Origin: a bacterium
GTDB lineage: Bacteria; Bacteroidota; Ignavibacteria; UBA10030
Direction: 5' to 3'
DNA: 47,910 bases
Assembly (NCBI GenBank): GCA_007280275.1
Contig: QYQB01000043.1
Span: 1-47,910 of the forward strand
How positions within the stretch are numbered: position 1 is the stretch's first letter; each line of letters opens with the position of its first letter. Positions 6,201-36,708 of the stretch are shown piece after piece. A model generated the notes under the pieces. The model had not been told where the DNA came from and made no database searches. It saw nothing but the letters and a program-made list of their open reading frames with translations. The position numbers and the translations under genes are program-made.

Positions 6201-6210
6201 CGTGAAGTAG
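241..6210 (+). CDS. Large secreted protein: signal peptide, 20 tandem fibronectin type III-like repeats, T9SS type-A C-terminal sorting domain (putative surface adhesin/stalk)
   Basis: 1989 aa ORF; signal peptide ending AFA-Q; 20 repeats of ~90-96 aa each with a 'LSW...Y(Y/F/T)W(R/H)V...FTT' pattern; tail FSLGQNYPNPFNP...SGVYF...KRLMLVK. Confidence 0.9.
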   Translation: MKFAAKILAVQIIFVAAAFAQSAPTGLQSTSITYNSATLSWNSVTGASYYQVQVDHDGSFSTPDWTSGNVSALSTSTTSLSGGTKYYWRVRAGSAGQWSSGAANFTTIPTAPTLSSPSNSATSVAVSPTLDWNTSTGAATYRMQLSTVSTFSSTVVDDATLTSSSRPVGPLSNNATFYWRVSATNATGTSSYSSTWSFSTAPAAPTGLVVSSVTTSSASISWSSVVGATSYTIQLDTDSDFRSPLPDIIQSGTSVTKTSLSDGTRYYWRVKASSANGSSGWVQGTSFVTLVPAPTGKPNDLWHWHFGSYVLGWSRVDGADSYYVELYTDPSFSSASLVGGDTTSRHEGYTVIRNLSPGVTYYWRVRGVNGGGSGPWSTENDSFTLEPNPPILLSPSNGATGISTSPTLSWNASSGATSYTLQYSISSDFPSNPQSATTTVNSISGISQNVSGLSNSTRYYWHVKATNSGGTSNYSNAFSFTTSGAVNPPLAPTLSAPSNGVTGVTVTQTLSWSASSTASSYRLQVSTSSAMSSPVVDDSTLTGTSRSVGPLSNNTQYYWRVNAKNSGGTSAYSSVFSFTTIVAVPAAPSPATPANGATAVSISPTISWSAPVGATSYRLQVSTSSTFSTFVFDQSTLTSPSYTLVGLSNSIQYYWRVSASNAGGAGPFSSTYSFTTTLALPGAPSGLVATPTSNGAVLTWIAASGASWYLVEVNDPNFSLIWRDSTSSLSSSARNLSPATTYTWRVWGGNAAGPGTSVGGSFRTPIAVPSAPGDLIETPNATGASLSWALVSGATSYVVEVYTDNNLTTRVWKDSLTAPPATVTNLLSSRSYTWRVQAINSGGRGGWTMSTFTTSSSLPNPPSAPTLATPVNGGSDVPISTTLSWSASSGATIYRLQLSTSSTFSTTVVDDSSLSGISRLVGPLSNNTQYYWRVCASNAGGTSQYSPTWSFTTIVVAPPIPTLSSPANNAGDQPVTLTLNWNASQGATKYRVQLSTSTNFATSLVDDSTVTGTSLQAGPLSNNTQYFWRVKASNVGGSSGYSSVFAFKTIVSPPAAPVLVTPQNNAGSVSTSPTFTWIAPDSALSYTIQVSTVSDFSTFIITQSGITGGSYRAAALSNSTQYYWRVRATNVGGTGLHSSAFTFTTIVALPGAPTLTYPANNTSGVETTPTLEWAASAGATRYRLQLSTSSTFNSTILDDSTLVTPSRQVGPLSNSTTYYWRVSATNAGGTTAYSSAFSFTTIVAAPSTPTLSSPANGSTNVPINPTLSWNTATGATTYRLQVSSSQSFATSIVDEAALSTTSREVGPLSNNTTYYWRVSATNAGGTTAYSSVFSFTTIVAAPSASTLSSPANGSTNVPIDPTLSWNAATGATTYRIQVSASQSFATSIVDEAALTTTSRQVGPLSKSTTYYWRVSATNAGGTSPFSSVWSFTTIGDLPGQPTNLGASPSTAEASLSWRSVDGASSYIVEVYADANFTSLKWSGAPSSPSVVASNLLNGTAYYWRVRAVNEVGSGPWAASSFTTSVAPPTAPGGLSASPTTNGAVLSWGNVSEATSYVVEVHADPSFNSLKWSGTPISPTANVSGLSEGTTYYWRVKGVNVGGSSGWATSSFTTTTQPAGAPTNLRATPTETGAALSWGSVSGAISYVVEVHGDANFSNPKWSGTPTATLATAANLLSGVTYYWRARTVSSGGSSGWSTSSFTTLTPPPGSPTNLTASPATSSATMRWASVGGATSYVVEVHADVNFTSLRWSDSPVGTSALSVTLTSGTTYYWRVRAVNSSGSSGWATSTFTTSLPIPQAPTLSSPPDAAINAPRTVSLSWNAAATATSYRIQIATSASFATNVLDTANITGLGIAVTLNVNTTYYWRVSAVNASGEGAFSATRSFTVVRTTAVEGTGNSIPSEFSLGQNYPNPFNPATKIEFSLPVSSHVRITIYNALGNLVEILADQYYAPGRYVTTFEAAGFPSGVYFSRLQTPGFAATKRLMLVK
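3868..4490 (+). repeat. Near-identical 288-bp tandem duplication within the FN3 gene
   Basis: ggaccgttgtcga recurs at 3868, 4156 and 4444 (period 288); the two full units differ only by scattered substitutions. Confidence 0.9.
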
Positions 6211-10679: not shown

Positions 10680-10749
10680 GGAAAATTCAGCGCGTTGAAA
10701 GGCGCCTAATAGTTGCTCTTTGGCAAGCTTTTAGGCCATTTTTCGACTC

Positions 10750-10797
10750 TTCTAATCTTTGAGAATCCCATTCCCGCCGCGTTCCCAATAGTGAGCA
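10750..10797. promoter_or_regulatory. Putative paired enhancer (UAS) sites for the sigma54 activator
   Basis: TTCTAA-TCTT-TGAGAA (10750-10765) and TTCCCA-ATAG-TGAGCA (10782-10797), 32 bp apart, 118/86 bp upstream of a sigma54 site. Confidence 0.6.
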
Positions 10798-10867
10798 AAT
10801 GTACATTCCCCTTTCAATTCTGTTGGCCATTTCTGCGAAAAACTCGCACTTCACCTTTTTTTCCGGT

Positions 10868-10883
10868 TGGCACGCTCCTTGCA
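10868..10883 (+). promoter_or_regulatory. Sigma54 (-24/-12) promoter
   Basis: TGGCAC-GCTCC-TTGCA, an exact match to TGGCAC-N5-TTGCW. Confidence 0.85.
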
Positions 10884-10954
10884 CTTTCGCAACGCAGGAT
10901 AAAGCATCATCCTAGCACCGTGGTTGTTACCCGAATAGTCAACAGGAGGACACA

Positions 10955-11215
10955 ATGGAGCGAGCTAGAATGCAATCGTCAGGATCGTCAGAAGGGCTGG
11001 TTGCGGGTAATCTGAAAGATTCCGTACGCACGTATGAACGTGCATTGATCATCGACTCGTTGCGAGTCAATGGTAATGACAAGCGCAAAGTATCCAAACT
11101 GCTTGGAATCAGTCTCTCGTCGTTGTACCGGAAGCTGCGTGAGCTTTCGATCGAAGATTTGGAAGAAGGTCACGAAGGCGAGCACGCAACTGAGTTCACT
11201 TCTGCCATGAGTTAA
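10955..11215 (+). CDS. Stand-alone Fis-type HTH protein resembling the C-terminal domain of the adjacent activator
   Basis: RBS AGGAGG; LKDSVRTYERALI...LLGISLSSLYRKLREL aligns with LRDAVKAFERTYI...ALGVSLSSLYRKMEEL of 9312-10679. Confidence 0.85.
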   Translation: MERARMQSSGSSEGLVAGNLKDSVRTYERALIIDSLRVNGNDKRKVSKLLGISLSSLYRKLRELSIEDLEEGHEGEHATEFTSAMS

Positions 11216-11300
11216 GAGTCAGCTGTTCGATTGAGTGATGCGCCGTTGTGCAAGGGGAAAGTTGCAGGCGCATCACGAGTGCAATGGAAGGAGCAGAGCT

Positions 11301-11500
11301 ATGAAACCGGGCTGGTGGGTTTGCCGGAATTCTTGCTGCGATCGCTGTAGGGGGAACCTTGTTGTATCTTCGTCATTTTCGGGGGGATGATCTGGAAGAC
11401 TTTCATTTCGTTGATGACGATAGTGCATTGAAGAACTTTTGAGCGTTCCCGCCTGAGTCGCCAGCAGATGAATTTGATGGCGTGAACTTTATTTCTGATT
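11301..11500 (+). pseudogene. Possible disrupted small single-TM protein gene
   Basis: RBS AAGGAG then ATG 11301 (MKPGWWV); removing one T at 11320-11322 joins it to AGILAAIAVGGTLLYLRHFRGDDLEDF...; in-frame TGA at 11440, then AFPPESPADEFDGVNFI. Confidence 0.4.
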
Positions 11501-11621
11501 CCCGGAATTCACCTCGCCCCAGGGAGGGGCGAGGGTTTGAAATCGAGAATCAGTTCGGGCTCCTGCAATCTTGCGCAGGAGAGGAGAACATATTCACGAA
11601 GCAGGGGAAGAACAGAAGTCT

Positions 11622-11678
11622 GCCCACAGGTGTGCCACGCATTCGCTTGAGAGCATTGCCGCCTGTGGGCTTTTTTTT
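11622..11678 (+). terminator. Rho-independent terminator
   Basis: gcccacaggtg / cgcctgtgggc stem followed by T8. Confidence 0.7.
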
Positions 11679-11821
11679 CCAGATCGCCGGAGGAGCTCTC
11701 GCTTGCGCTATCCCATGTGCACGTGCTCCGGCAATGTTTCTGACCCCGTTCGAATTGGCGATTTTCGATCCTGAATGATGGTATTCGACGAACATTAACC
11801 GGAGTCCCGAAGCGAGGATCT

Positions 11822-12271
11822 ATGGAAGCGAGCAAGAATCAACTGGCAGAGCACATGGCGGACCTTACCTACGAGCTTCTGGAGAACTGCCAGATCAAGA
11901 TCGAGCGTACGGCCCACAAACTCAATCTCACCGTAGCCGAGTTCAAGCTGCTTCGCTCGATTCAAGACGGAGAGAAATTGTCAGCTGGGAGTCTCGCAAA
12001 GCGACTCGGGCTTTCGAGCAGCCGCATCACGAGGATCATCGATGGACTCGTAAAGAAAGAAATGGTCAGGAAGGATGCGGGAGGCAACGATCGCCGCGTG
12101 GTGGATGTTCAACTGACCCCCATCGGAGTGGATACGCGAAACCAGCTCAAGGATATGTACACAAGCGTTCATCGGGATATCATCGATCTCCTGCCTTCCG
12201 ATGCCGGTGAATCAGTCTTGCTCGCCATGGAAAAACTCCGCGAGGCAACACACGAGTGGGTTAAGCAGTAA
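11822..12271 (+). CDS. MarR-family transcriptional regulator
   Basis: 149 aa; LTVAEFKLL...LAKRLGLSSSRITRIIDGLVKKEMV...DRRVVDVQLTPIG winged-helix signature. Confidence 0.92.
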   Translation: MEASKNQLAEHMADLTYELLENCQIKIERTAHKLNLTVAEFKLLRSIQDGEKLSAGSLAKRLGLSSSRITRIIDGLVKKEMVRKDAGGNDRRVVDVQLTPIGVDTRNQLKDMYTSVHRDIIDLLPSDAGESVLLAMEKLREATHEWVKQ

Positions 12272-12736: not shown

Positions 12737-14917
12737 ATGAGGCGTTTGCTTTCTGTCTGTGTTCTGCTGCTTATGGTATGCCTTGCGTTTACAGACGCAT
12801 ATTCTCAAGCAGTGGACCTGAAGGTCGTGGCGATGTCTCCCGGTCTCCGGAGCAGCGGCTATCCGAGCTTCTCGTCTCCAGCTGCAGGTACGCCCAATTA
12901 TGTCTCCACGGGACTCAGGACCGTTGGTAAAGGCATGAAGGTGTACCTGAAGGCCGATACAGTCGGCTCAGGTGCGACAAAAGTAACAACTTATGCATGG
13001 ACATTTGTGTCCAAGCCGCCAGGATCCACGGCAGCGTTCAGCGATGCAGCAAAGGATTCCGTGACATTTATCCCGGACGTTACAGGTCAGTACATCGTTC
13101 AGGTTGCTGTAAACGGCGCCGCGAAGACTCACGTTGACACAATTACGGCCAGCACCTATCGCGGTATCACCACTTTGGTGCAGTCGTGCCCCTGTCATGC
13201 CGGCTCTGCCACCTTCCTGAATTCCTACAGCAACTGGAAGACCACGAAGCACGCAACGATCTTCGCGCGTGGGATGACTGGCCAGCTTGAGAATTCAGAA
13301 GGCACCCATTACAAAGGTGTGTACACGAAAAGTTGCTTCAAATGTCACACGACCGGATGGGAATCTCTGACGAACAACGGAAACTTTGGCTACCTCGCAA
13401 ACACAGGTGCCACAGCCACACCGCCAACGTCGTTTGACTCCACGTGGTACAAAGGTCTTCCTTTGGAAGGCGGCGACTACCTGATTCCGTTCCAGGATTC
13501 CACGCTCTACAAGAAGCTTTCACCTCAAATGCTGGCGGTTGGCAGCATAGGCTGCGAAAGCTGCCACGGCCCGGCAGATGACCATGCGACGACCGCCGAC
13601 AAGAAGAAGATCAGTGTTACGGCTGATGCGGGCGTCTGCAACCAGTGCCACGAATCTCCGAAGGGGCATTCGCTTGGATATTTCTGGAGAGGCTCGACAC
13701 ACTCCACCATGAAGACCAGTGCCGCTGAAGCGAGTCGCAATTCGTGCTGGCCATGTCATAACGGAACGGCGTTCATTTCGTTCACGAATGCATGGGCAGC
13801 CGGACGAAAGACGACATCTGCTGATTCAGCGAAAGTTGATCCAACTTTTCAATCGATATCGTGCTCAGTCTGCCACGATACACATGGCAGTTCGAACGAA
13901 CACCTTCTCCGCTACACAAAGATCGATACACTTATCAACGGGTACAAAGTACCCGCGGGTGTAGGTGGATTTGGTCAAATGTGCATGAACTGTCACCGCG
14001 CGCGTAACAACTCGGTGACCCAAGTGAAGGGTCAGATGGGAAAATTCGGCGACCGGTTCTATCCGCACTATAGTCCTCAAGCTGATATGTACCTCGGAAC
14101 CAATGCTTGGGAATTTGGACTCAAGCTTGAAGGACTGAATACGCACGGCGGACTGAAGAATGGCTGCGTTACATGTCATATGTCCGAACGGATGGTTGTG
14201 CCGAACTACACGAAGGTTCAATCTGATCACGGCATGTCGATGGCGGAGAATGGCGTTGACAAAGTCGAAGGATGCGTCGAGTGTCACGGTGCTATCAAGT
14301 CGTTCAAGGACATCAAAGCGTCATTCGACTACGATGGCGATGGCCAGGTCAAAAGTGCCGTTGAGGAAGTGGCTGGACTAATGGCAAAGCTGAAGGCCAA
14401 GTTACCTGTAGATGCGACAGGTGAGCCGGTCACGATGGCGGCGGATTCGATGCTCGTTAGGAACTTCGCTACCACGAACAAGGTGAGCTACTCCACGCTG
14501 ATCGCGTCGTTGTTCAACTACAATTATGTTTCTCACGACATGAGCCTGGGTATCCACAACACGAAGTACACAGTGGCGATCCTTCGGGCCTCACTCGGAT
14601 TGGTGACCGGCGTCGAAATGGATCCATTGCCGATTCCCAAAACGTTCGAGCTGAGCCAAAACTATCCGAACCCCTTCAATCCGACGACCGAAATCCGCTT
14701 CGACATTCCGAAGTCATCGAGCGTCAAGGTGGTGGTCTATGATATCATGGGCCGGGTGGTCAGGACGCTGGTCGATCAGAAGATGGAAGCCGGTTCACAC
14801 CGGATTTCATGGAATGGTCGCGATCTGGCTGGCAACACTGTCTCCAGCGGGGTTTACTTCTATCACATCAGTGCTGACGGATTCGCAGCCACGAAGAAGA
14901 TGACCTTGATGAAGTAG
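12737..14917 (+). CDS. Secreted multiheme cytochrome c (8 CxxCH + 1 CxCH) with N-terminal Ig/PKD-like domain and T9SS type-A/FlgD-like C-terminal sorting domain
   Basis: Signal peptide AYS-Q; CPCH, CFKCH, CESCH, CNQCH, CWPCH, CSVCH, CMNCH, CVTCH, CVECH; DMSLGIHNTKY helix; tail FELSQNYPNPFNP...SGVYFY...KKMTLMK. Confidence 0.9.
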   Translation: MRRLLSVCVLLLMVCLAFTDAYSQAVDLKVVAMSPGLRSSGYPSFSSPAAGTPNYVSTGLRTVGKGMKVYLKADTVGSGATKVTTYAWTFVSKPPGSTAAFSDAAKDSVTFIPDVTGQYIVQVAVNGAAKTHVDTITASTYRGITTLVQSCPCHAGSATFLNSYSNWKTTKHATIFARGMTGQLENSEGTHYKGVYTKSCFKCHTTGWESLTNNGNFGYLANTGATATPPTSFDSTWYKGLPLEGGDYLIPFQDSTLYKKLSPQMLAVGSIGCESCHGPADDHATTADKKKISVTADAGVCNQCHESPKGHSLGYFWRGSTHSTMKTSAAEASRNSCWPCHNGTAFISFTNAWAAGRKTTSADSAKVDPTFQSISCSVCHDTHGSSNEHLLRYTKIDTLINGYKVPAGVGGFGQMCMNCHRARNNSVTQVKGQMGKFGDRFYPHYSPQADMYLGTNAWEFGLKLEGLNTHGGLKNGCVTCHMSERMVVPNYTKVQSDHGMSMAENGVDKVEGCVECHGAIKSFKDIKASFDYDGDGQVKSAVEEVAGLMAKLKAKLPVDATGEPVTMAADSMLVRNFATTNKVSYSTLIASLFNYNYVSHDMSLGIHNTKYTVAILRASLGLVTGVEMDPLPIPKTFELSQNYPNPFNPTTEIRFDIPKSSSVKVVVYDIMGRVVRTLVDQKMEAGSHRISWNGRDLAGNTVSSGVYFYHISADGFAATKKMTLMK

Positions 14918-14941
14918 CTCTGTTCCAAGCACCAGTCTTAG

Positions 14942-14978
14942 AAAAGAAGCCCTGGCAGATCTGTCAGGGCTTCTTTTT
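14942..14978. terminator. Bidirectional-type intrinsic terminator
   Basis: aaaagaagccctggcag / ctgtcagggcttctttt inverted repeat. Confidence 0.85.
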
Positions 14979-15214
14979 GTTCTTCAGATCTGCCACCTTG
15001 AACCACGATCCTTCACTGACCCGCATCCAGTCCTGTTTCCTTCGCACTTACACTGGTTTCACGAAACCGTTCTTAGACTTGTAGAAATTTGCAGCGACGC
15101 AGACATAAAGAGAATTCTTACACAATGCTACAAGGATGCGGGCCATGATGTTGTGCATCTCAACACATATGTCCCATTCCCCTTGTTTCATTGGGGAAAA
15201 GCGAACTATTCTTC

Positions 15215-15262
15215 TTGTCAGAAGTTGGAATGAATGCGAACTCAAGTTGGCAATGATAGGAA
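15215..15262. promoter_or_regulatory. Putative paired UAS sites (degenerate)
   Basis: TTGTCA-GAAG-TTGGAA (15215-15230) and TTGGCA-ATGA-TAGGAA (15247-15262), 32 bp apart, 130/98 bp upstream of a sigma54 site. Confidence 0.45.
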
Positions 15263-15274
15263 ACAACAGCCCTT

Positions 15275-15295
15275 TAATTGCTTGATGTTTGTCAA
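15275..15295. promoter_or_regulatory. Overlapping IHF-like site and FNR/Crp-like palindrome
   Basis: Minus strand CATCAA-GCAA-TTA (15275-15287) resembles WATCAA-N4-TTR; TTGAT-GTTT-GTCAA (15282-15295) resembles TTGAT-N4-ATCAA. Confidence 0.4.
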
Positions 15296-15344
15296 TTTTC
15301 GTCAATTCTGGCACTATCTGGGGGGTTCCAATTTGTAGCCTTTG

Positions 15345-15360
15345 CGGCATAGGAATTGCG
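15345..15360 (+). promoter_or_regulatory. Sigma54 promoter for T9SS cytochromes 2 and 3
   Basis: CGGCAT-AGGAA-TTGCG (GG-N10-GC). Confidence 0.6.
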
Positions 15361-15493
15361 GGTTTTCAAGTTCAACAACTTATGGAGCTTTTCACATTGA
15401 TGTCTTATTATCACGTATTCGGCCCCGCAAAACAGAGCTTATTCGGCAACCTGATTTCTCAATGACGCAGTGCACACCTTTGAGGGAGGTACC

Positions 15494-18397
15494 ATGAAGA
15501 GATTTCTACTTGGCTTTATTGTTCTGGCAGCATTGATCTGCATCCTCGCTTTGCCCGTTTTGGCACAGATCCAGACGGCAAAGATCTCCGTGGTTAGTGT
15601 CCCGGATCGTTTCAAGGCTGCAAATAAGAACCAATCAACGACCGGCCTGAAATCAGTTGGCGTTGGAAGCCGTGTTGTGCTGGCCCCCATCGTATTCTCA
15701 GGCAACGGTGGAAAGTACGCAGACACGCTTCTCACGGTCACGAGTGCGACGTGGACTCTGAAGAGCCCGTACGGCGCGACAAAGACTATCCAGGACACGG
15801 CTGCCGGTTTGAATGGCAAGATTGTCTATTTCGTCCCCGACACAGTGGGCGACTGGACCGTGACGATGACGGCAACGACTGCGAAGGGTGCTGCATCGCA
15901 AGTGACAACGACAATCGTAGCAGCCAAGTTCATCGGCGCTGGAATCACGATGCAGGCGAACCAGAACGTTCCGAATGGTTGCGCGTGCCATCTTGTGAAC
16001 ACAACCAATTTTACCGATTGGTCAAAGTCGAACCATGCGACGGCTGTGAAGCGCAAGCTCAACGACGCGGCCGGTCACTTCAGCTTCAGCTGCTTCTCCT
16101 GCCACTCCGCTGGGTATGATGGACTGACCTCCAGCGGCAACAACGGATTTGATGATGTGGCAGCGGCAGAGAAATTCACAACGGTTTCGAAAAATGCTCC
16201 TGGAGTATTTGACTCTCTGACGACCCTTTATCCGAAGTCGATGTCGTTGACCGGGATCCAGTGCGAGAATTGCCATGGTCCAGCGGGTCAGCACACTGCA
16301 GCCTTCCCAGTAGCGGGCAACAACAAGTTGGATGAGACGCTCTCATCAAACGTATGCGCCCCGTGTCACTTCTCCTCTGATCGCCATGGAATCGGATATG
16401 CATGGTCAGCTTCTGCGCACGCCATTTCGACGACAGAAGGAATCCAGACGCAATACACCGATCGTCCGATTTGCGCACGCTGCCATACCGCCCAGGGCTA
16501 CATCAATGAAGTAGTCGGTAGTAAAGCCCAGCCGGTTCCGGCTACTGGCGATCTGGTGTATGCCAATCCAATGCCCATCGGATGCTCTACCTGCCATGAT
16601 CCGCACAATGGCTCAAATGAGATGCAACTGCGTGCAAAGACGATCGGCGATGCTTGCGTCGGTTGCCACATTACGCGCATGAGTAGCCGTGGTTTGCACA
16701 CTGCACATCAAGGTTCGATGTTGATCGGAACAAACACGGCCTCATTCAGTCTGGATGTCGCGAATGCCTACCTGCTCGCTCCGTCAGGCTCGGTCCAGCA
16801 GAACAATGCCGCAGTTGGTACGTGGGGGGGATGGGAACTCCCTGGCTACACATATGAGAACTCCTCGCACAGCGATATCAAGGAGCGATGCGTCGCGTGC
16901 CATATGGCGAGTTCTCCTTCATACCTTGCTGCATCTGCATCGAACTTCACAAAAGCCGACACAATGCTGACCAAACTTGGGCGGCATACGTTCAAGGTCG
17001 CGTATGAGAATATCGTCGGCCAGGACACGACGACGATTCTGAATCCTACCGGCTGCGACGAGTGCCACGGAACGGTGTCCATCGAATTTGTCGAGTCAAC
17101 CCAGGCGAAGACCGATAAACTACTTGCAAGCCTGTATGCTGCGTTGCCAAAACGGGATACGATCATCAGTGCAATCAATCCCACCGGTACGCCGATCCTC
17201 TTCACCGACACAATCACGTGGCAAAACAATTCAAAGCTTCCTCTGACCTCGAAACGCAAGCTTTCGGTCGTTGAGCGCGCGGCTGCCTACAATCTGCAGT
17301 TCGTTCGTAACGATGGTAGCGGTGGCGTGCACAACTACAACTATTCAAAGGGCCTTCTCAACTCCTCGCTCGAGCAGGTGAAGCTCGGCGCCGGAGCGTC
17401 CTCAATCTCCTCGATCAAAGACGTGCCGGTTGATAACGGCAAGAAGGTCCAGGTTGTCTGGTCCGCCTTCCCGGCAGAGACGTATAGCTTCAACCAGGTG
17501 ATCAATTATGGAGTGTGGAGAAAAGATCCGATTCTGCCCAGCCTCAATTCGGTTAAGAAGGCCGGCAGTTTCACGGAAATGATGAGCACAACGAGCCAGG
17601 GCGGCCAGGTTGTTCTGGGCGGCAGCGTTTGGTCATACGTTGGCTCAGTCCCTGCATCTGGAATGGCACAGTATTCATTCCTGGCTTCGACACTCTTCGA
17701 TTCCACGAAAACCTCAGGTCAGCGGTGGACAGTTTTCTATGTTGCCGGCTACACCAAGGACAACCAGGTCATGTTTTCGAGCCAGCCCGACAGCGGATAC
17801 TCGGTGGACAACCTCGCTCCGGCTGTTCCATCAGGCTTGAATGCCTCGTTCTCGAAGAACACCGTTACATTGAAGTGGACGGCGAATGTTGAGAGCGACG
17901 TGTATCAGTACGCGATCTATCGTGGAACAACATCAACCTTCAACCCGGCGGGTACCACGCCTTTGGCGAAGGTTCGTACACCTCTCTATCAGGATCCGGT
18001 TTCTCAGAGCGGTGTGACGTACTACTACAAGGTCTCTGCACTCGATATCGCGGGTAACGAGAGCGGATACACCAGCGTGAGTGTGCTCACAGATGTCCAG
18101 AACGGCAGCGGTCTGCCGACGGAATTCGCGTTGAACCAGAACTTCCCGAATCCGTTCAACCCGACGACAGAAATCGCATTCTCGGTGCCGAAACAAACCC
18201 CTGTCAAGGTCGTGATCTACGGCTTGTCCGGAGAGGTTGTTGCGACAGTCGTGAATCAGACGATGTCTGCCGGCAATTACCGTGTCACGTGGAATGGCAA
18301 AACCGACGACGGTCGTGCTGTGGCAAGCGGTGTCTACTTCTACCATTTGCAGGCGGACGGATTCACTGCAACGAAGAAAATGACATTGCTGAAGTAA
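15494..18397 (+). CDS. Secreted multiheme cytochrome c (8 CxxCH + 1 CxCH) with extra beta/FN3-like domains and T9SS C-terminal sorting domain
   Basis: ATG 15494 after GGAGGT; signal peptide VLA-Q; CACH, CFSCH, CENCH, CAPCH, CARCH, CSTCH, CVGCH, CVACH, CDECH; DGSGGVHNYNY; FN3-like DNLAPAVPSGL...YYYKVSALDIAGNES; tail FALNQNFPNPFNP...KKMTLLK. Confidence 0.9.
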   Translation: MKRFLLGFIVLAALICILALPVLAQIQTAKISVVSVPDRFKAANKNQSTTGLKSVGVGSRVVLAPIVFSGNGGKYADTLLTVTSATWTLKSPYGATKTIQDTAAGLNGKIVYFVPDTVGDWTVTMTATTAKGAASQVTTTIVAAKFIGAGITMQANQNVPNGCACHLVNTTNFTDWSKSNHATAVKRKLNDAAGHFSFSCFSCHSAGYDGLTSSGNNGFDDVAAAEKFTTVSKNAPGVFDSLTTLYPKSMSLTGIQCENCHGPAGQHTAAFPVAGNNKLDETLSSNVCAPCHFSSDRHGIGYAWSASAHAISTTEGIQTQYTDRPICARCHTAQGYINEVVGSKAQPVPATGDLVYANPMPIGCSTCHDPHNGSNEMQLRAKTIGDACVGCHITRMSSRGLHTAHQGSMLIGTNTASFSLDVANAYLLAPSGSVQQNNAAVGTWGGWELPGYTYENSSHSDIKERCVACHMASSPSYLAASASNFTKADTMLTKLGRHTFKVAYENIVGQDTTTILNPTGCDECHGTVSIEFVESTQAKTDKLLASLYAALPKRDTIISAINPTGTPILFTDTITWQNNSKLPLTSKRKLSVVERAAAYNLQFVRNDGSGGVHNYNYSKGLLNSSLEQVKLGAGASSISSIKDVPVDNGKKVQVVWSAFPAETYSFNQVINYGVWRKDPILPSLNSVKKAGSFTEMMSTTSQGGQVVLGGSVWSYVGSVPASGMAQYSFLASTLFDSTKTSGQRWTVFYVAGYTKDNQVMFSSQPDSGYSVDNLAPAVPSGLNASFSKNTVTLKWTANVESDVYQYAIYRGTTSTFNPAGTTPLAKVRTPLYQDPVSQSGVTYYYKVSALDIAGNESGYTSVSVLTDVQNGSGLPTEFALNQNFPNPFNPTTEIAFSVPKQTPVKVVIYGLSGEVVATVVNQTMSAGNYRVTWNGKTDDGRAVASGVYFYHLQADGFTATKKMTLLK

Positions 18398-18407
18398 TTC
18401 GATCACG

Positions 18408-18440
18408 GATGCCCCGCCCGAACCGGGCGGGGCGTCTCTT
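18408..18440 (+). terminator. Strong GC hairpin with weak U-tract between the paralogs (attenuator or mRNA-stabilising stem)
   Basis: gatgccccgcccg-aac-cgggcggggcgtc followed by tctt. Confidence 0.55.
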
Positions 18441-18496
18441 ACTCACAAAGGAATTTTGTGTCGCACCTCAAATCGAATACCCAAGAGGGAGGTTGT

Positions 18497-21388
18497 ATGA
18501 AGAGATTTTTACTCACTGCTACAGTGCTTGTGGTACTGATTTCGGTACTCGCAGGTCTGGCGCTTGCGCAGACAGTGCAGTCTGGAAGGGTTAAAGTGGT
18601 TGCTGTCCCCGACCGTTACAAGGCTGCGAACAAGAATCAATCAACGACTGGGTTGAAGACAGTCGGACAAGGTCAGCGTATTGTCCTTGCGCCGCAAATA
18701 TGGTTGAACCAGGGGACAAAGCAGGCAGACACGCTTGTCCCGGCTCTCTCCGCTACGTGGACCCTCACCAATCCTTACGGAACGGCGAAGACAATTCAGG
18801 ATACGGCGACCGGACTCAATGGTACGTACGTCTATTTTGTCCCCGACACCGTTGGGGACTGGACAGCGTCCTATTCGGCAACCACAAAGTTAGGGTCCGT
18901 GGCAGGCACCGGAAAGATCACCGTCGCAAAGTTTGTTGGCGTGGGAATCTCGATGGTCTCCACTCAGGGCGTGCCGAACGGTTGCGCTTGTCACCTCGTC
19001 GAACCAACGAAATTCTCAGATTGGTCGAAGACCAACCATGCTACCGCAGTGAAGCGCAAACTGAATGACCCGACCGGGCACTTCAGTTTCAGCTGCTTCT
19101 CCTGCCATTCGATAGGTTATGATGGCGTCCCCACCGCCGGCAACAACGGTTTTGACGATGTTGCTGCGGCGGAGAAGTTTGCCACAGTGTCGAGGAATGC
19201 AGTTGGTGTGTTTGACTCGCTGAAGACACTCTATCCAAAGTCGATGGCATTGACCGGAATCCAGTGCGAAAACTGCCACGGCCCCGCAGGACAGCACGTT
19301 GCAGGAATGCCCGTTCCAGGAAACAACAAGCTTGACGAAACATGGTCGCCGGAAGTTTGTGCACCTTGCCATTTCTCAAGCGACCGACATGGTATTGGCT
19401 ATGCCTATACTGCTTCACGTCACTTCACGTCAAGCTCGAACGGGAGCACCCGCGTTAACAACTTCAATCGTCTCTTGTGCGCTCGCTGCCATACCGGCCA
19501 GGGATATGTATATGAGAAGATTCAAGGCAAGATGCAGACTGTTCCCGCCACCGGAGAAGTTGAATACGTTGGTGGCACGTCTATGACCTGCGTAACCTGC
19601 CACGATCCGCACAATGGATCCAACGATAAGCAGCTTCGTGCGAAATCGGTTGGCGAGTCTTGCCTCGGCTGCCACGTTATCCGTTTGGGCACGGGTGGTT
19701 CCTTGCATACATCCCATCAGGGTTCGATGCTACTTGGTGCGAACCTGACACCATTCGGCACGGACGCGCTGAATGCCTACACATCGACGCCTTCAGGGAC
19801 TCCTCAGCAGGTCGTCGCAGCAGTCCAGACGTTGGGTGGATGGCAGTTGCCCGGCTATGTCTATGAGAATTCTTCTCACAGCGATATCAAAGAGATGTGC
19901 GTGAAGTGTCACATGGCAAGTTCACCTTCGTTCCTGGCAGCTTCGGCTTCCAACTTTACGAAGGCAGACACGATGATGACAAAGCTTGGCGGTCACACCT
20001 TCAAAGTTGCATATGACAATATCGTCGGCAAAGACACCACTACGATTCTCAATCCGACGGGGTGCGAAGAGTGCCACGGCGAGGCTTCGATCGAGTTTGT
20101 GGATCTCACCCAGGCAAAGACGAAAACTCTGCTGGCGAACTTGTTCAAAGCGCTGCCAAAGCGAGACTCCGCTGGCGTTACGATAAGCTCAATGAGTGAC
20201 ACGGTTGCCTACCAGAACTGGGCAAAGGCTCCCGCCGCACTGAAGCGCAAACTCACAACGATTGACAAGGCATCTATCTTCAACTACAACTTTGTCAACA
20301 ACGATGGAAGCTTCGGTGTACACAACTTCAACTATGCGAAAGGTCTTTTGACTTCTTCGCTGGAGCAGGTGACGCTCGGTGCCGGTGCATCAAGCATCGC
20401 ATCGATCAAAGATGTACCGCTCGACAACGGCAAAAAGGTCCAGGTTGTGTGGAACGCCTTCCCGTCAGAATATTACAGCTTCAACCAGATTGTCAATTAC
20501 GGTATCTTCAGAAAAGATCCGACGCTCCCGAGTCTCAATTCGATCAAGAAGGTCGGAAGCTTCACGGAACTGATGCAGACGACCAAGGTCGGCGGATCGG
20601 CCCTCATGGCTGGCACAGTGTGGACTTATGTCGGCTCAGTGCCGGCCTCAGGATTGACGCAGTATTCCTACATTGCTCCGACGATCTTCGATTCAACGAA
20701 GACCTCGGGTCAGCGGTGGACGACGTTCTATATCGCTGGCTACACGGGGGCGAGCACGGTTGCGTTCTCAACGCAGGCTGACAGCGGTTACTCAGTTGAC
20801 AACATTGCTCCTGCTTCTCCGAGCGGCACATCAGCCTCGTTCCTGAATAACGTGGTGACGTTGAAGTGGACCGCCAGCCCAGAAGATGATGTGTCCCAGT
20901 ATGCAATCTACAGAGGAACGGCAGCTAATTTCAATCCTGCCGGGACCACACGGTTGGCAACAGTGCGCACGTCACAGTACCAGGATGCAGTGTCGCAGAG
21001 CGGCGTGACATACTACTACAAGATTTCGGCGATTGATTTTGCTGGCAACGAGAGCGGCTGCACCAGCGTTAGCGTGCTCACAGATGTCCAGAACGGCAGC
21101 GGTCTGCCGACGGAATTCGCGTTGAACCAGAACTTCCCGAATCCGTTCAACCCGTCCACAGAGATCGCCTTCGCCGTGCCGAAACAGACTGCGGTCAAGA
21201 TCGTGATCTATGGTCTCTCCGGTGAGGTTGTTGCCACGCTCGTGAATCAAACGATGGCGGCTGGCAACTACCGTGTTACCTGGAACGGCAAGACCGACGA
21301 TGGTCGGGCAGTCGCCAGCGGTGTCTACTTCTACCATCTGCAGTCAGAAGGATTCACTGCAACGAAGAAGATGACATTGTTGAAGTAA
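18497..21388 (+). CDS. Paralog of 15494-18397: secreted multiheme cytochrome c (8 CxxCH + 1 CxCH) with T9SS C-terminal domain
   Basis: ATG 18497 after GGAGGT; CACH, CFSCH, CENCH, CAPCH, CARCH, CVTCH, CLGCH, CVKCH, CEECH; collinear with the upstream gene over its whole length. Confidence 0.9.
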   Translation: MKRFLLTATVLVVLISVLAGLALAQTVQSGRVKVVAVPDRYKAANKNQSTTGLKTVGQGQRIVLAPQIWLNQGTKQADTLVPALSATWTLTNPYGTAKTIQDTATGLNGTYVYFVPDTVGDWTASYSATTKLGSVAGTGKITVAKFVGVGISMVSTQGVPNGCACHLVEPTKFSDWSKTNHATAVKRKLNDPTGHFSFSCFSCHSIGYDGVPTAGNNGFDDVAAAEKFATVSRNAVGVFDSLKTLYPKSMALTGIQCENCHGPAGQHVAGMPVPGNNKLDETWSPEVCAPCHFSSDRHGIGYAYTASRHFTSSSNGSTRVNNFNRLLCARCHTGQGYVYEKIQGKMQTVPATGEVEYVGGTSMTCVTCHDPHNGSNDKQLRAKSVGESCLGCHVIRLGTGGSLHTSHQGSMLLGANLTPFGTDALNAYTSTPSGTPQQVVAAVQTLGGWQLPGYVYENSSHSDIKEMCVKCHMASSPSFLAASASNFTKADTMMTKLGGHTFKVAYDNIVGKDTTTILNPTGCEECHGEASIEFVDLTQAKTKTLLANLFKALPKRDSAGVTISSMSDTVAYQNWAKAPAALKRKLTTIDKASIFNYNFVNNDGSFGVHNFNYAKGLLTSSLEQVTLGAGASSIASIKDVPLDNGKKVQVVWNAFPSEYYSFNQIVNYGIFRKDPTLPSLNSIKKVGSFTELMQTTKVGGSALMAGTVWTYVGSVPASGLTQYSYIAPTIFDSTKTSGQRWTTFYIAGYTGASTVAFSTQADSGYSVDNIAPASPSGTSASFLNNVVTLKWTASPEDDVSQYAIYRGTAANFNPAGTTRLATVRTSQYQDAVSQSGVTYYYKISAIDFAGNESGCTSVSVLTDVQNGSGLPTEFALNQNFPNPFNPSTEIAFAVPKQTAVKIVIYGLSGEVVATLVNQTMAAGNYRVTWNGKTDDGRAVASGVYFYHLQSEGFTATKKMTLLK

Positions 21389-22861: not shown

Positions 22862-22877
22862 TGGCACGAGAGTTGCG
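22862..22877 (+). promoter_or_regulatory. Sigma54 promoter of the membrane cytochrome operon
   Basis: TGGCAC-GAGAG-TTGCG. Confidence 0.8.
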
Positions 22878-22945
22878 AGAAATGAGTTGAAATTATATGT
22901 TCCATTCGATTGTTGACAAATTCAGCAGTTCGTGAACTTACGAAA

Positions 22946-25135
22946 ATGAGACCTGATTTGAAGCTTCCTCACCCGATTGTCTGGTTTTTCGTCCTCGTTT
23001 TCTTCTCGTTGCAGGCACTAGCCCAGACCCGAGAAGATTGCCTGACGTGTCACAGCGATTCTTCTCTGGCGATGGAGAAGAAAGGCAAACAAGTCCCTTT
23101 GTTTGTCAACGCGGCTATGCTGGAAAAATCCACCCATCGGAAGTTGGTTTGCGTTGCTTGTCACGCAGGCTTTGATGCTCAGAATGTCCCCCACAAAGAA
23201 AGAATCCAACCCGTCAACTGCCTGACGTGCCATAAGGATGCGCCGCTGAAGCATCGGTTCCATCCGCAGATGAATCTCGCAGGCGGAACGAACGGCAAGT
23301 CGGATGTCTCATGCAAAGAGTGTCATGGCACTCATGCTGTCGTCTCTCCGAAATCTCCCGGTTCAAAGTTCAACTCGGCAAAGCTGAGTGAGTTCTGTGG
23401 GTCGTGTCACAAGGATGTGAAGGAAACGTTTTCACAATCATCCCATGCGCACGCTCAGGTGTCGGGAATTCTGGGCGCACCGACGTGCATTGACTGTCAT
23501 CGAAACCCGATCGTTCACGTCACAGCAAAACAGGATACGACGGAGTTCAAGGTCGCGCAGGACAAACTCTGTCTCTCGTGCCACCTCGATGATCCAAATG
23601 TCCGGGCGCGGATGTCCCCTTCGACAGGATTCATCGGCGCATATGAGGGAAGCGTCCACGGATCAGCGCTGCAGCGTGGTAATGGAAACGCCGCAAACTG
23701 TGTGGATTGCCACGGCAGTCATGAGATGAAGAAGGGGGTGGATCCGACGTCCCGCGTTGCGAAGGCGAATATCCCTCAGACATGTGCCAAGTGCCACTCC
23801 GATGTCGCAAAGGCGTTCAGCTACAGCGTCCACGGTCTTGCCGTCAAGAACGGAAACATGTCGGCCCCCGTGTGCACAGATTGCCATGGTGAGCATAACA
23901 TTCTTAATCACAAGGACCCTCGCTCGCCGGTTGCTGCAGGCAATGTCTCAAGTCAGGTATGCTCCCCCTGCCATAGCTCTGTGAAGCTCAATCAGAAGTA
24001 TGGTCTTGCGAATGACCGTTTCAAGAGCTTCGCTGACAGCTACCACGGGTTGGCCGGCACGGCCGGCTCCGTACAGGTTGCCAACTGCGCCAGTTGTCAT
24101 GGTGTCCATGATATCAAGCCTTCGAGCGATCCAACCTCCCGCATCAGCAAAGCCAATCTCATCAATACTTGCGGGACGTGCCATCCCGGGGCGAACGAGA
24201 ACTTCACAAAGGGTTCCGTCCACGTCATCGCGACTGAGAAGCAAGAAGATGTGCTCTATTATGTCTCCACCACCTATATCATTCTCATCATCGTCCTCAT
24301 CGGTGGTATGCTTCTCCACAACCTGCTCGACTTTGTCAAGAAATCGAAGCGTCAACTCATGTATCGACGCGGCCTGATTCCACGGCCGCCGGTGGCACAC
24401 CGGTTGTACCTGCGGATGTCGCTGAACGAGCGCCTCCAGCACGCGTCCCTGGTGATCAGCTTCTTCACTCTCGTGTTCACCGGCTTTGCTCTGAAATATC
24501 CGGAAGCGTGGTGGGTGACACCGATTCGGAATATCAGTCCTCTGATGTTCGACCTGCGCGGAATTCTGCATCGGATTGCAGGCGTTGTGATGGTTGCGGC
24601 GAGTCTGTTCCATGTTTATTACGTTCTCTTCGTGCCCCGGGGAAAGCAGTTAATTCGTGATCTGCTTCCCAAAATCGAGGACGTGACCGATGCGATCGGT
24701 ATTCTGAAGTACAATCTCGGTTTCTCGCCGGTCAAACCGAAATTCGGGAGGTTCAGCTACATCGAGAAGAGCGAGTATTGGGCGCTGGTATGGGGAACGA
24801 TGGTGATGGCGGCGACCGGAGTCATCCTCTGGTTTGATAACACGTTCCTCGGGCTCCTGACGAAGCTATGGTGGGACGTGGCACGCACCGTCCACTACTA
24901 TGAGGCGTGGCTGGCTACCCTTGCCATTATCGTCTGGCATTTCTATTTCATCATGTTCAATCCCGATATTTATCCTATCAATCTCGCATTCTGGAAGGGG
25001 ACGCTGACAGAGGAAGAGATGGAAGAAGAACATCCGCTTGAGCTGGAAGAGATCCGTCACGCCGAAATGAAGGCGGCCCTGAGGAATCAAACTGAGCCCG
25101 AGAAGGAATCGGCATCTGTAGGGGCCAAAGAATAG
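22946..25135 (+). CDS. Fused 13-heme cytochrome c / diheme cytochrome b (FdnI/HydC-type) quinol oxidoreductase, CbcL-like
   Basis: Signal peptide ALA-Q; 13 CxxCH; TM helices with ERLQH, LHRIAG, GRFSYIEKSEYWALVWG, VHYYEAWLATLAIIVWHFY. Confidence 0.85.
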   Translation: MRPDLKLPHPIVWFFVLVFFSLQALAQTREDCLTCHSDSSLAMEKKGKQVPLFVNAAMLEKSTHRKLVCVACHAGFDAQNVPHKERIQPVNCLTCHKDAPLKHRFHPQMNLAGGTNGKSDVSCKECHGTHAVVSPKSPGSKFNSAKLSEFCGSCHKDVKETFSQSSHAHAQVSGILGAPTCIDCHRNPIVHVTAKQDTTEFKVAQDKLCLSCHLDDPNVRARMSPSTGFIGAYEGSVHGSALQRGNGNAANCVDCHGSHEMKKGVDPTSRVAKANIPQTCAKCHSDVAKAFSYSVHGLAVKNGNMSAPVCTDCHGEHNILNHKDPRSPVAAGNVSSQVCSPCHSSVKLNQKYGLANDRFKSFADSYHGLAGTAGSVQVANCASCHGVHDIKPSSDPTSRISKANLINTCGTCHPGANENFTKGSVHVIATEKQEDVLYYVSTTYIILIIVLIGGMLLHNLLDFVKKSKRQLMYRRGLIPRPPVAHRLYLRMSLNERLQHASLVISFFTLVFTGFALKYPEAWWVTPIRNISPLMFDLRGILHRIAGVVMVAASLFHVYYVLFVPRGKQLIRDLLPKIEDVTDAIGILKYNLGFSPVKPKFGRFSYIEKSEYWALVWGTMVMAATGVILWFDNTFLGLLTKLWWDVARTVHYYEAWLATLAIIVWHFYFIMFNPDIYPINLAFWKGTLTEEEMEEEHPLELEEIRHAEMKAALRNQTEPEKESASVGAKE

Positions 25136-25139
25136 GATC

Positions 25140-27173
25140 ATGAAGCCTCTCGCACGCTTGAAAATTCATAGTACCTTGAAGTGCCATCGGCTCATTGTAC
25201 GATCGTTCTGGCTTATTGTTTTCGCGGGCTTGTGGCTGGCTCCGGCGTTCGGTCAGGAGAACACCGAATGTCTCGGTTGTCACAGCGACAAATCCCTTGA
25301 AGGGACCCGCAAAGGCAAGAAGTTCTCGGTTTTTGTCGATGAGAAGAAGTTCGGCCAGTCGATGCACTCTGCTCTTACGTGCGTTTCATGCCACGCTGAC
25401 CTTGCCGGCAAGGAACTACCTCACGCGGAAGGCCTTCAGAAAGTAGAATGTGGAACCTGCCACTCGGCCGAGCAGGAGCTGCATACAAAATCGCTTCACG
25501 GCAAAGCGATTGCACGAGGCGACGCCCTGGCCCCGCATTGCAACGATTGCCACGGCAACCACAATATACTCTCCTCGAAAGACCAGCGTTCACCGATCTC
25601 GCCGCTCCAGATCCCATTCCTGTGTGGGAAATGCCACCAGGAAGGATCGCTGGTGACCGCTCAGCGCACGATTCACCAGGATCATATTCTGGAGAATTTC
25701 TCTGAGAGTATCCACGGTCAGGCCCTCTTCCAGAAGGGATTGATTGTCGCGCCCAACTGCGCTTCGTGCCATACGCCGCATTCAATTCTTCCTCACACTG
25801 ATCCGGCGTCGTCGATTGCCAGGGGGAACATCTCCAAGACGTGCACGAAATGTCATGCGCAGATCGAGATTGTACACCGCAAGGTCATTCGCGGGGAGCT
25901 CTGGGAAAAACAGGCGCACACGCTGCCCGCGTGTATAGATTGTCATCAACCCCACAAGATACGGAAGGTCTTCTACACGCAGGGGATGGCGGATAAGGAT
26001 TGCCTCCGCTGCCACGAGAACAGGAACCTCAAGTCGTCGAAGGACGGCCGGTCACTCTACGTGCAGGGGGAACAGCTTGGGTTTTCACGACACTCGAAAG
26101 TCTCGTGCAGCCAATGCCATTCCGAAGTCAGCGTTTCGCGCCTTCGTCCATGCGAGACGATCACGAAAAAAGTGGACTGCTCATCCTGTCACGCCGAGCT
26201 CGCGCAGCAGTATCAGGTTAGCACGCATGGGAAGATGGCCGCGAAAAATGACCCCAACGCCCCGACGTGCAAGGAATGTCACGGTACACATCTCGTACTC
26301 GGAAAGCTGAGTCCAAATTCCGCAACCTTCGCAACGAATGTCCCACTCCTGTGTGCGAAGTGCCATCGGGAAGGACAGAAAGCGGCCGTCCGCTACACCG
26401 GCTCCCAGCATGAGATCATCGAGCACTACACCGAAAGCATCCACGGCAAAGGGTTGATGAAGAGCGGGCTGACAGTGACGGCAACGTGCACCAGCTGCCA
26501 CTCTGCCCACAGCGTGTTGCCGAAGAGCGATTCGCTCTCAAGCGTGAATCCAAAGAATGTTCCTCAGACCTGCGGGCGGTGTCATCACGGGATTCAAGAA
26601 CAATTCGAATTGAGCATCCACGCGGTCCTGGTTGGGAAGACCGACAAACCGTTGCCGGTGTGCAACGATTGCCATACAGCGCATACCATCCGGCGTGCGG
26701 ATGAAACAGGATTCAAGCTTCAGATCATGTCTCAATGCGGAAGGTGTCACGAGGCAATCGCAAAGACATACTTCGATACCTACCACGGGAAAGTATCTCA
26801 GCTTGGCTACACTAAAACAGCGAAGTGCTATGATTGTCACGGCGCTCATGACATCCTTCCAATTTCCGACTCCCGCTCGCACCTGAGCAGAGAAAAGGTT
26901 GTCGGCACATGTCAGAAGTGCCATTCCGGAGCCAACCGGCGGTTTGCAGGGTACCTGACGCACGCGACGCATCACGATCCGGAGAAATATCCGTTTCTCT
27001 TCTGGACGTTCTGGGGTATGACTTCGTTGTTGGTCGGCACATTTGTTCTTGGCGGCGTGCATACGCTCCTCTGGTTGCCTCGTGCTCTTCAGATGCAGCG
27101 CCAGCGCCGCAGGGAGTCTGGGCAACAGAACCAGGGAGACAAAGGAGAGCATGGAGACAACAGCAAAGCCTGA
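25140..27173 (+). CDS. 19-heme cytochrome c with C-terminal membrane anchor (c-subunit of a split CbcL-like complex)
   Basis: Signal peptide AFG-Q; 19 CxxCH; YLTHATHHD followed by TM FWTFWGMTSLLVGTFVLGGVHTLLWLPR. Confidence 0.88.
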   Translation: MKPLARLKIHSTLKCHRLIVRSFWLIVFAGLWLAPAFGQENTECLGCHSDKSLEGTRKGKKFSVFVDEKKFGQSMHSALTCVSCHADLAGKELPHAEGLQKVECGTCHSAEQELHTKSLHGKAIARGDALAPHCNDCHGNHNILSSKDQRSPISPLQIPFLCGKCHQEGSLVTAQRTIHQDHILENFSESIHGQALFQKGLIVAPNCASCHTPHSILPHTDPASSIARGNISKTCTKCHAQIEIVHRKVIRGELWEKQAHTLPACIDCHQPHKIRKVFYTQGMADKDCLRCHENRNLKSSKDGRSLYVQGEQLGFSRHSKVSCSQCHSEVSVSRLRPCETITKKVDCSSCHAELAQQYQVSTHGKMAAKNDPNAPTCKECHGTHLVLGKLSPNSATFATNVPLLCAKCHREGQKAAVRYTGSQHEIIEHYTESIHGKGLMKSGLTVTATCTSCHSAHSVLPKSDSLSSVNPKNVPQTCGRCHHGIQEQFELSIHAVLVGKTDKPLPVCNDCHTAHTIRRADETGFKLQIMSQCGRCHEAIAKTYFDTYHGKVSQLGYTKTAKCYDCHGAHDILPISDSRSHLSREKVVGTCQKCHSGANRRFAGYLTHATHHDPEKYPFLFWTFWGMTSLLVGTFVLGGVHTLLWLPRALQMQRQRRRESGQQNQGDKGEHGDNSKA

Positions 27174-29629: not shown

Positions 29630-29692
29630 TGCCATTGTTCCTAGTCAAGAGACTCCGATGAACAACATTGTTTTGCGGCCCTGGGAGGGTGA

Positions 29693-30433: not shown

Positions 30434-30434
30434 C

Positions 30435-32407: not shown

Positions 32408-32498
32408 ACGGTGCGTGTGGGCAGGGCGGTTCCCAAAGACCAGTGCCGGTACCTTAGACAATATAAACTGTAGACTCTACAAGCGCAGGGCGTAGATT

Positions 32499-32957
32499 AT
32501 GACAAGCGAAGTCGGACCAAACGGTGAGCAAGAAACCAGGAGGGGCTTCCTGAGGTATCTCCTTGGGGGCGGTCTGGTTGCATCGCTCGCTGCAGTTCTG
32601 TATCCGATTATGGCGTACCTGAAGCCGCCTCAGCAAGCAGAGGTAGAAGTGACGAGCGTGAAGGCCGGCAAGGTCAGTGCCATGGAGAAAGAGAGCGGCA
32701 TCATCGTTCGGTTCGGGAACAAGCCGGTGATCCTTGTTCGGAATGCAGCCGGTGAATTTCGCGCCTTTTCCGCCACGTGCACACACCTTGATTGCACGGT
32801 GCAATTTCGCAAAGACATGGGTCTTATCTGGTGCGCATGTCATAACGGCCGGTACGATCTGAACGGACGCAACGTGGCGGGTCCGCCGCCGCGTCCGCTT
32901 GACGAATACAGGGTCATCATCCAAGGTGAAGACATCTCAATCTCGAAGAAAGCATGA
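32499..32957 (+). CDS. Rieske [2Fe-2S] subunit of a Rieske/cytochrome b complex
   Basis: Tat motif TRRGFL plus TM; CTHLDC and CACH boxes; GPPPRPL. Confidence 0.93.
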
Positions 32958-35502: not shown

Positions 35503-35544
35503 CTCCCTTTGTTCCACATCGATAACTAATCCAGGAGGATCTCT

Positions 35545-36593: not shown

Positions 36594-36708
36594 CCAGAGG
36601 GCAGACGCTCGTTTTCAGCACGAATGTATTGACACCACTGTTTTCAGCGACCTTGTTATTTGAACTTGTGACGTTGTTTTGATCAACCATACTCTTACTA
36701 GAGCGATT

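Follow-up and report, generated by a model that had tools for sequence, protein, structure and literature searches.

The window analysed here is the whole of contig QYQB01000043.1 (C259 in our numbering; 47,910 nt), one of 338 contigs in a metagenome-assembled genome (MAG) of the class Ignavibacteria, which totals 3.70 Mb and is 84% complete. It carries a tandem array of three genes, A, B and C, each predicted to encode a multiheme cytochrome that ends in a C-terminal domain (CTD) of the kind borne by type IX secretion system (T9SS) cargo. An initial annotation of the window had noted three tandem paralogs between 12737 and 21388, and open reading frames (ORFs) were found there, as follows (lengths in amino acids, aa):

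12737-14917, + strand: cytochrome A, 726 aa; signal-peptide-like N-terminus, PKD/immunoglobulin (Ig)-like domain, OcwA-like heme domain and type A CTD, without FN3
15494-18397, + strand: cytochrome B, 967 aa if begun at MKRF; putative signal peptide, followed by Ig-like domain, heme domain, beta-sandwich, FN3 and type A CTD
18497-21388, + strand: cytochrome C, 963 aa from the MKRF start; architecture as in B

The ORFs of B and C are open from 15470 and 18458 respectively, and the internal methionines that begin MKRF, at 15494 (B) and 18497 (C), are the likelier starts to judge by the sequence. B and C were 70% identical over their full length. Between A and B, identity was 27% in the heme domain and 61% in the tail, and A was missing the approximately 245 residues of beta domains that stand between heme domain and tail in B. 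By eye, the N-termini of all three consisted of a charged start, a hydrophobic stretch and a cut region of the form A/S-Q; the model of B has an N-terminal helix at residues 2-22. The full-length AlphaFold2 model of B (pLDDT 77.7) was divided into the signal helix, an Ig-like domain (27-144), the heme domain (150-632), a beta-sandwich (638-770), an FN3 domain (780-865) and a tail sandwich (879-965); FN3 matches were also obtained by sequence search. The Ig/FN3-like domains of the initial annotation were therefore recovered in B, but only in part in A, where the N-terminal beta domain was the only one (PF22352 at E 0.0023, below cut-off) and FN3 was absent. A glutamine stood directly behind the putative signal-peptide cut (SQ or AQ) in all three genes (12737-12810, 15494-15570 and 18497-18575); this is the pattern that a passage of PMC5837995 describes as the 'Q-rule' of Bacteroidetes.

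Sorting domains and heme domains of the array

Each of the three tails was matched by the T9SS type A sorting profile when the genome was scanned:

14663-14902, + strand: type A sorting domain of A (TIGR04183, 46.4 bits in the genome scan)
18143-18382, + strand: type A sorting domain of B (TIGR04183, 41.3 bits in the genome scan)
21134-21373, + strand: type A sorting domain of C (TIGR04183, 38.9 bits in the genome scan)

When applied to the proteins, TIGR04183 scored 45.3, 36.7 and 34.6 bits for A, B and C, all over its cut-off of 23. The matches covered residues 643-722 of 726 (A), 892-971 of 975 (B) and 893-972 of 976 (C), where the positions for B and C count from the full open frames; in each case they stopped 4 residues short of the stop codon. 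The motif NxPNPFNP...SGVYFY...KKMTLxK, which the initial annotation had taken for a type A tail, was present in all three proteins, with final residues ...KKMTL(M/L)K. PF13860 (FlgD Ig-like) was likewise over cut-off in A, B and C, so that two of the three profiles proposed for checking the tails matched throughout, while PF18962 (cut-off 27) was exceeded in A (34.6) but not in B and C. TIGR04183 matched 100 places in the genome, corresponding to approximately 100 CTD cargo genes, and a hidden Markov model (HMM) made from the genome's own tails identified 108. The curated HMM places the tails of A, B and C among the T9SS type A sorting domains. The 100 places included a 1989-aa protein at 241-6210 of the window, which combined at least ten FN3 repeats with a type A CTD (PF18962, 29.9 bits). 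Besides A, B and C, a single frame of the genome, C302:4807-6639 (-), joined three or more CxxCH motifs (it has three) to a CTD-like tail.

A, B and C each contained 8 canonical CxxCH motifs, and none contained CxxCK, the active-site motif of NrfA. The nine heme motifs of the initial annotation are reached only if a CxCH at the first heme site of the family is counted:

13187-13198, + strand: first site of A, reading CPCH (aa 151-154)
15980-15991, + strand: first site of B, reading CACH (aa 163-166)
18983-18994, + strand: first site of C, reading CACH (aa 163-166)

The 8 CxxCH motifs, the first site and nine non-motif histidines were invariant in alignments of 32 and 35 relatives. Nine such histidines fit nine bis-histidine hemes, that is, a wire rather than an enzyme. 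Among 35 aligned rows, the position homologous to the first site was CxCH in 13, CxxCH in 20 and CxxxCH in 2. Within the genus of the window it was CxCH in 11 of 11 readable sequences, covering A-type and B-type paralogs (one fragment was unreadable), and among relatives of the order from other genera it was CxxCH in 8 of 8 sequences; G268, a genome of another genus, had CxCH as well. A conserved heme site thus differs in its spacing between relatives, and CxCH may be either a natural heme motif with a one-residue spacer or a decayed site. No paper was found that treats CxCH as a proven heme motif; the FEET pipeline includes CXCH among its heme search patterns, and another paper that mentions CXCH is about the Rieske motif.

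A profile of the heme domain, built from 35 relatives, matched OcwA (6i5b) at E 1.5e-36 (129 bits) and the undecaheme S-layer cytochrome of Carboxydothermus ferrireducens (6qvm) at E 3.2e-25. Fold searches agreed with this. A search with the whole of B was uninformative because its results were dominated by FN3 and Ig hits (insulin receptor, contactins, PorU 6za2), and the heme domain alone was therefore refolded with AlphaFold2 (residues 145-640 of B; pLDDT 80.4, pTM 0.81). With VIA-align, 6qvm (Z 15.7, 344 residues, rmsd 4.3) and 6i5b (Z 15.1, 336 residues, rmsd 4.2) were the top two of 48,161 chains, the domain model being mostly helical, a type of fold for which Z below approximately 13 may be generic. 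With Foldseek, 6qvm and 6i5b occupied ranks 1 to 3 (E 7.8e-7 and 6.2e-6). On the strength of profile and predicted model, the heme domain is homologous to those of OcwA and the Carboxydothermus S-layer cytochrome. Membership of the MtrC/OmcA family was also considered, after PF22113 (MtrC/MtrF domains II/IV, cut-off 30) scored 38.9 in A and 33.7 in C, with B not among the matches listed, and after a sequence match to 6r2q that spans 148 residues. This was not adopted; the fold searches favoured OcwA and 6qvm, Z was no higher than 4.8 for the MtrA chain of 6r2q, and neither MtrC nor OmcA was among the fold matches listed by Foldseek or VIA-align.

Secretion genes and distribution of the family

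Profile searches of the genome identified SprA (316.8 bits, cut-off 200), its gene being partial at a contig end, PorU (822.7 bits, cut-off 420) and PorZ (306.5 bits, cut-off 260). Two proteins of the PorV family were tested and passed PF19572 (30.6 and 42.5, cut-off 27). Of the machinery that the initial annotation would look for, sprA, porU and porV-family genes were therefore present, and so was porZ; porK-N were not found, as considered below. Counting the source genome among its relatives, PorU was over cut-off in 31 of 31 genomes and SprA in 21 of 21. Passages of PMC5837995 state that T9SS had been reported only for Bacteroidetes, while BLAST suggested possible systems in Ignavibacteriae. 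Several of the 17 PorV-like genes in the genome, collected through matches to NF033710 (PorV equivalog), adjoin CTD-ended genes (contigs C70, C171, C245, C327, C251 and C5). These neighbours recall cargo/PorP-like pairs, and they could be a sign of dedicated shuttles.

Full-length tailed relatives of the cytochromes occurred in at least 14 genome records (L007-L020), all of them MAGs labelled Bacteroidota, Bacteroidetes, Ignavibacteriae or Ignavibacteria; across 80 loci, 20 frames in 16 loci united at least three CxxCH with the tail motif. PF13860 and/or PF18962 accompanied 110 of the best 120 heme-domain relatives in a 90%-identity protein collection, and automatic names included 'T9SS type A sorting domain-containing protein', 'FlgD immunoglobulin-like domain containing protein' and 'cytochrome c3 family protein'. 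The heme domain had 1183 matches at E <=0.001, and 61 at E <=1e-30, in a 50%-identity library. Of the best 150 of these matches, 59 were given a terminal CTD by the HMM made from tails of the source genome; among the remaining 91, a crude regular expression identified 22 with a lipobox-like start. A phylum sample of 251 genomes contained the heme domain in 31, comprising 30 of the 62 genomes of the window's class (taken as families f1-f14 and f33-f36) and 1 of the 189 outside it; in that single genome the tail was present and GldM was not found.

Homologs from elsewhere ended differently. Those of Geomonas silvestris (L029) and of a member of the Myxococcales (L026) had lipobox-like N-termini and no CTD, while that of a member of the Solibacteraceae (L021) had a plain signal peptide and no CTD. 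One heme module therefore appears, from these comparisons of sequence, with different surface-targeting devices typical of each lineage. A tree of 102 heme domains (quick method, LG+G4; 54 of 156 rows, which covered the domain incompletely, were excluded) required 14 changes of the tail label, against a mean of 33.9 after shuffling; because its tail-less rows include gene fragments, the tree does not give the number of gains or losses. The second gene downstream of the G. silvestris homolog (L029, 12914-14251) encoded a 445-aa protein with a signal-peptide-like start, which is possibly an outer-membrane partner.

Gene neighbourhood and heme maturation

The window contig holds 11 of the 15 frames in the genome that have at least three CxxCH. 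A, B and C lie within a 30-kb island of quinol-oxidising modules, periplasmic multihemes, a beta-barrel/cytochrome conduit and a CcmF-like lyase, whose predicted features were:

11822-12271, + strand: MarR-family regulator, upstream of A
22910-25135, + strand: 13-heme cytochrome fused to a cytochrome b membrane domain (PF01292), downstream of C
25140-27173, + strand: 19-heme cytochrome
28139-36078, + strand: NrfH/NapC-like 6-heme protein, 8-heme protein, NrfC-like FeS protein, NrfD, Rieske protein, cytochrome b, 11-heme protein and 4-heme protein
36679-40358, + strand: candidate outer-membrane conduit, a 447-aa beta-barrel-like protein ending in F, followed by 14-heme and 7-heme cytochromes
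40425-42719, + strand: divergent CcmF/NrfE-family heme lyase paralog of the cytochrome island (TIGR03145: 253 bits, cut-off 927)

The 13-heme/cytochrome b fusion is the likely point at which quinol is oxidised and electrons enter, and a further cytochrome b, listed after the 19-heme protein, also lies downstream of C. The gene order of tail-bearing cytochrome(s), 13-heme/cytochrome b fusion and 19-heme protein was kept in three close relatives (L007, L008 and L009).

Upstream of the array, the MarR regulator is joined by a PAS histidine kinase and a sigma54-dependent response regulator; the 1989-aa FN3 protein is followed by a PDZ protein and then by this kinase and regulator. Just downstream of the response regulator gene there was a stretch of 1.1 kb (10680-11821) with neither a convincing ORF nor a match to Rfam. 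Inside this stretch the sigma54 -24/-12 consensus was matched exactly (10868-10883, +), and a site with one mismatch was found at 22862-22877, 33 nt before the 13-heme/cytochrome b gene. The total of 34 sigma54 sites was not above chance (shuffles: mean 26.4, sd 4.65, with 6 of 100 reaching 34). Similarly, a scan for sigma70 promoters and terminators produced nothing that exceeded shuffles, and Rfam had 0 matches in the window.

A second CcmF paralog was identified at C79:17242-18819, where it is cut by the contig end; it was 34% identical to the island type. The island type occurred in all genomes of the genus, and the two paralog types were common in the order. The initial annotation had assumed that hemes are attached in the periplasm by Ccm, and this is supported in so far as the island contains a gene for a System I lyase (CcmF/NrfE family); CcmE was not found in the genome, which is incomplete. 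It was also considered whether the island lyase is dedicated to maturation of the CxCH site. This was rejected; in a comparison of G011-G014, G016, G017, G024 and G029, with heme-domain matches called at E 1e-20, orthologs of the lyase (47-58% identity) were also found in genomes with CxxCH cytochromes or with no heme-domain match, and there is therefore no specific tie to CxCH.

Interpretation and comparison with known systems

The domain composition, the homology of the modules, the gene context, the presence and absence of machinery and the distribution obtained here make it likely that A, B and C serve, at the surface or after secretion, as terminal electron-transfer cytochromes of T9SS type. 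How they are loaded with heme, exported, cleaved and anchored, and with which redox partner and in which direction they exchange electrons, we infer as follows. The cytochromes would be made as Sec pre-proteins and exported to the periplasm, where a System I (CcmF-type) lyase would load the hemes; the tail would then direct passage across the outer membrane via SprA with a PorV-family shuttle and would be cut off by PorU with PorZ, after which the mature cytochrome would be fixed to the surface or released. Electrons would travel from quinol oxidation at the inner membrane, through the periplasmic multihemes and the beta-barrel/cytochrome conduit, to A, B and C, and from there to insoluble Fe(III) or Mn(IV), humics or partner cells, although the reverse path would also be possible. 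A role as terminal reductase or relay, as proposed in the initial annotation, gains support from homology, the heme domain being related to known cell-surface terminal reductases (6i5b and 6qvm).

Several observations weigh against this interpretation, and the chief argument is the missing PorL/M/N. GldL, GldM and GldN had no match in profile searches of the genome, while GldK had only sub-threshold, sulfatase-like matches (best 69 bits, cut-off 350). None of 31 order genomes (27 with a completeness of 90% or more) and none of 19 class genomes had a GldM match, nor did genome G247; for GldL and GldN, no genome among the 21 searched in the order exceeded the cut-off. In the run that included the class genomes, the GldM model matched 20 of 62 genomes from other classes of Bacteroidota. 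Since GldM is missing even from the 31 relatives within the order, most of which are nearly complete, the absence of motor and ring is not an assembly gap; the abstract of PMC12365241 describes these parts as core in Bacteroidia. Furthermore, all 17 matches to NF033710 were below its cut-off of 250, neither CcmE nor ResB turned up in the genome (which is 84% complete, with its second CcmF cut by a contig end), and the CxCH site may be without bound heme. Judged by its gene content, the lineage is one that possesses genes for a translocon, shuttle-family proteins, a sortase and PorZ, as well as many cargo genes, without recognisable motor or ring. Since porL/M/N were not found, the route, if real, would involve SprA, PorV, PorU and PorZ without a recognisable motor or ring, and would not be a textbook T9SS.

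The absence of GldL/M/N from the genome and its relatives (31 examined for GldM; 21 for GldL and GldN) could also mean that the proteins never leave the periplasm, where they would act as carriers of the island, their tail being either a mere Ig-like (FlgD-type) module or unusable without PorKLMN. The sub-threshold PorV equivalog is consistent with such retention, and PF13860 scores higher than PF18962, the latter being below its cut-off of 27 in B (23.5) and C (24.1); but TIGR04183 was over cut-off in all three proteins and approximately 100 frames of the genome have such endings, the nearest solved relatives are cell-surface proteins, and the Geomonas and Myxococcales homologs have lipoprotein-type starts in place of the tail. 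Retention also fits poorly with the conservation of SprA, PorU and PorZ over their cut-offs, which would be difficult to account for unless a tail-dependent pathway were at work, and we regard retention as an unlikely explanation. It is very unlikely, in our judgement, that the proteins are exported as proposed but function as enzymes on soluble nitrite, hydroxylamine, sulfite or tetrathionate. The catalytic octaheme and pentaheme nitrite reductases do share the fold (Z 13.5, 13.3, 12.4 and 12.3), a further point against a purely electron-transferring role, MccA and HAO were matched at Z 8-9, and the profile matched NrfA chains at E ~3e-11. However, the lack of CxxCK and the nine invariant non-motif histidines, which suggest nine six-coordinate hemes, are at odds with a catalytic site, the best matches were two surface electron-transfer cytochromes, and the island is an electron conduit without N- or S-oxyanion genes among the frames scanned.

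The remaining alternative retains the location and reverses the current, such that oxidation of Fe(II), a cathode or a partner cell would feed the quinone pool. Multiheme chains are reversible in principle, and the Rieske/cytochrome b pair and the several quinone-linked modules of the island would suit inward flow. Sequence does not decide the direction; however, work cited in a passage of PMC11495043 found that Ignavibacteria increased when Fe(III) was dosed anaerobically, which fits reduction, and inward flow is considered improbable. The interpretation as surface or secreted terminal cytochromes can be extended to the wider proposition that Ignavibacteria send folded nine-heme holo-cytochromes through a SprA/PorV/PorU/PorZ pathway without the PorL/M/N motor to the cell surface for extracellular electron transfer, some of them with a CxCH-bound heme. 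That conjunction is offered tentatively and is, as a whole, rather doubtful.

Multiheme cytochromes reach the surface by lipoprotein signals with type II secretion, by filament assembly, or by association with the S-layer or cell wall; to our knowledge, these routes have been established for only a few model bacteria. If the proposed interpretation is correct, the sorting tail adds a further route in a widespread anaerobic lineage, and provides an easy sequence marker for extracellular cytochromes in metagenomes of the FCB group. The SprA pore would then pass redox proteins already loaded with cofactor, and the wider proposition, if true, would establish a new way of exporting electron-transfer cytochromes, type IX secretion that needs no motor, and a naturally occurring heme-attachment motif that is new. 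This raises the question of what drives tail-dependent export in a class with approximately 100 cargo genes per genome and no recognisable PorL/M/N, while the CxCH site offers a test case for the substrate range of heme lyases. The interest of the family lies in its wide occurrence within one class, the ease with which it can be tested, and its ties to the questions of motor-less export and CxCH.

The initial annotation knew of no characterised multiheme cytochrome exported by T9SS, and a full-text search, with subscription journals and supplements outside its range, likewise found no paper that connects T9SS with multiheme cytochromes or with extracellular electron transfer; T9SS and extracellular electron transfer were mentioned together in a paper on vesicles of oral bacteria. 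The passages concerned of PMC5492636, on respiration in Melioribacter, do not deal with extracellular cytochromes, and the supplement of PMC11495043, as described in part of that article, covers predicted extracytoplasmic heme proteins that may include the A/B/C family. Both modules are known, and their combination is labelled automatically in databases; no paper was found that discusses it.

The closest known relatives of the heme domain are those of OcwA from Thermincola potens (6i5b) and of 6qvm, whose entry titles describe outer cell wall or S-layer proteins. OcwA has nine hemes, which would match the nine sites here. However, both come from Gram-positive bacteria, where there is no outer membrane to be crossed, and both lack a T9SS tail; A, B and C differ in their N-terminal Ig-like domain, type A CTD and CxCH first site, and B and C also in the beta-sandwich and FN3 domains. 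All nine distal histidines seem to be conserved in A, B and C, whereas some hemes of OcwA have open or methionine ligation. The homologs from Geomonas, Myxococcales and Solibacteraceae share the nine-site heme domain and the invariant histidines, but have a canonical CxxCH at the first site and no CTD.

MtrC and OmcA of Shewanella and OmcB of Geobacter are lipoproteins with a role like that proposed here, as the terminal surface step after a porin-cytochrome conduit. Proteins of this type have a lipoprotein signal and use type II secretion, whereas A, B and C would rely on a C-terminal sorting domain as route or anchor. In this respect they resemble the gingipains of Porphyromonas gingivalis and the secreted enzymes of Flavobacterium, which combine a Sec signal with a C-terminal beta-sandwich of the TIGR04183 type, and their genome shares homologs of SprA/Sov, PorV, PorU and PorZ with classical T9SS hosts. 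The cytochrome family is almost confined to the window's class in the genomes sampled (30 of the 31 with a match), and it is distinguished from classical T9SS cargo by being predicted to consist of covalently heme-loaded redox proteins, in a host without recognisable PorL/M/N.

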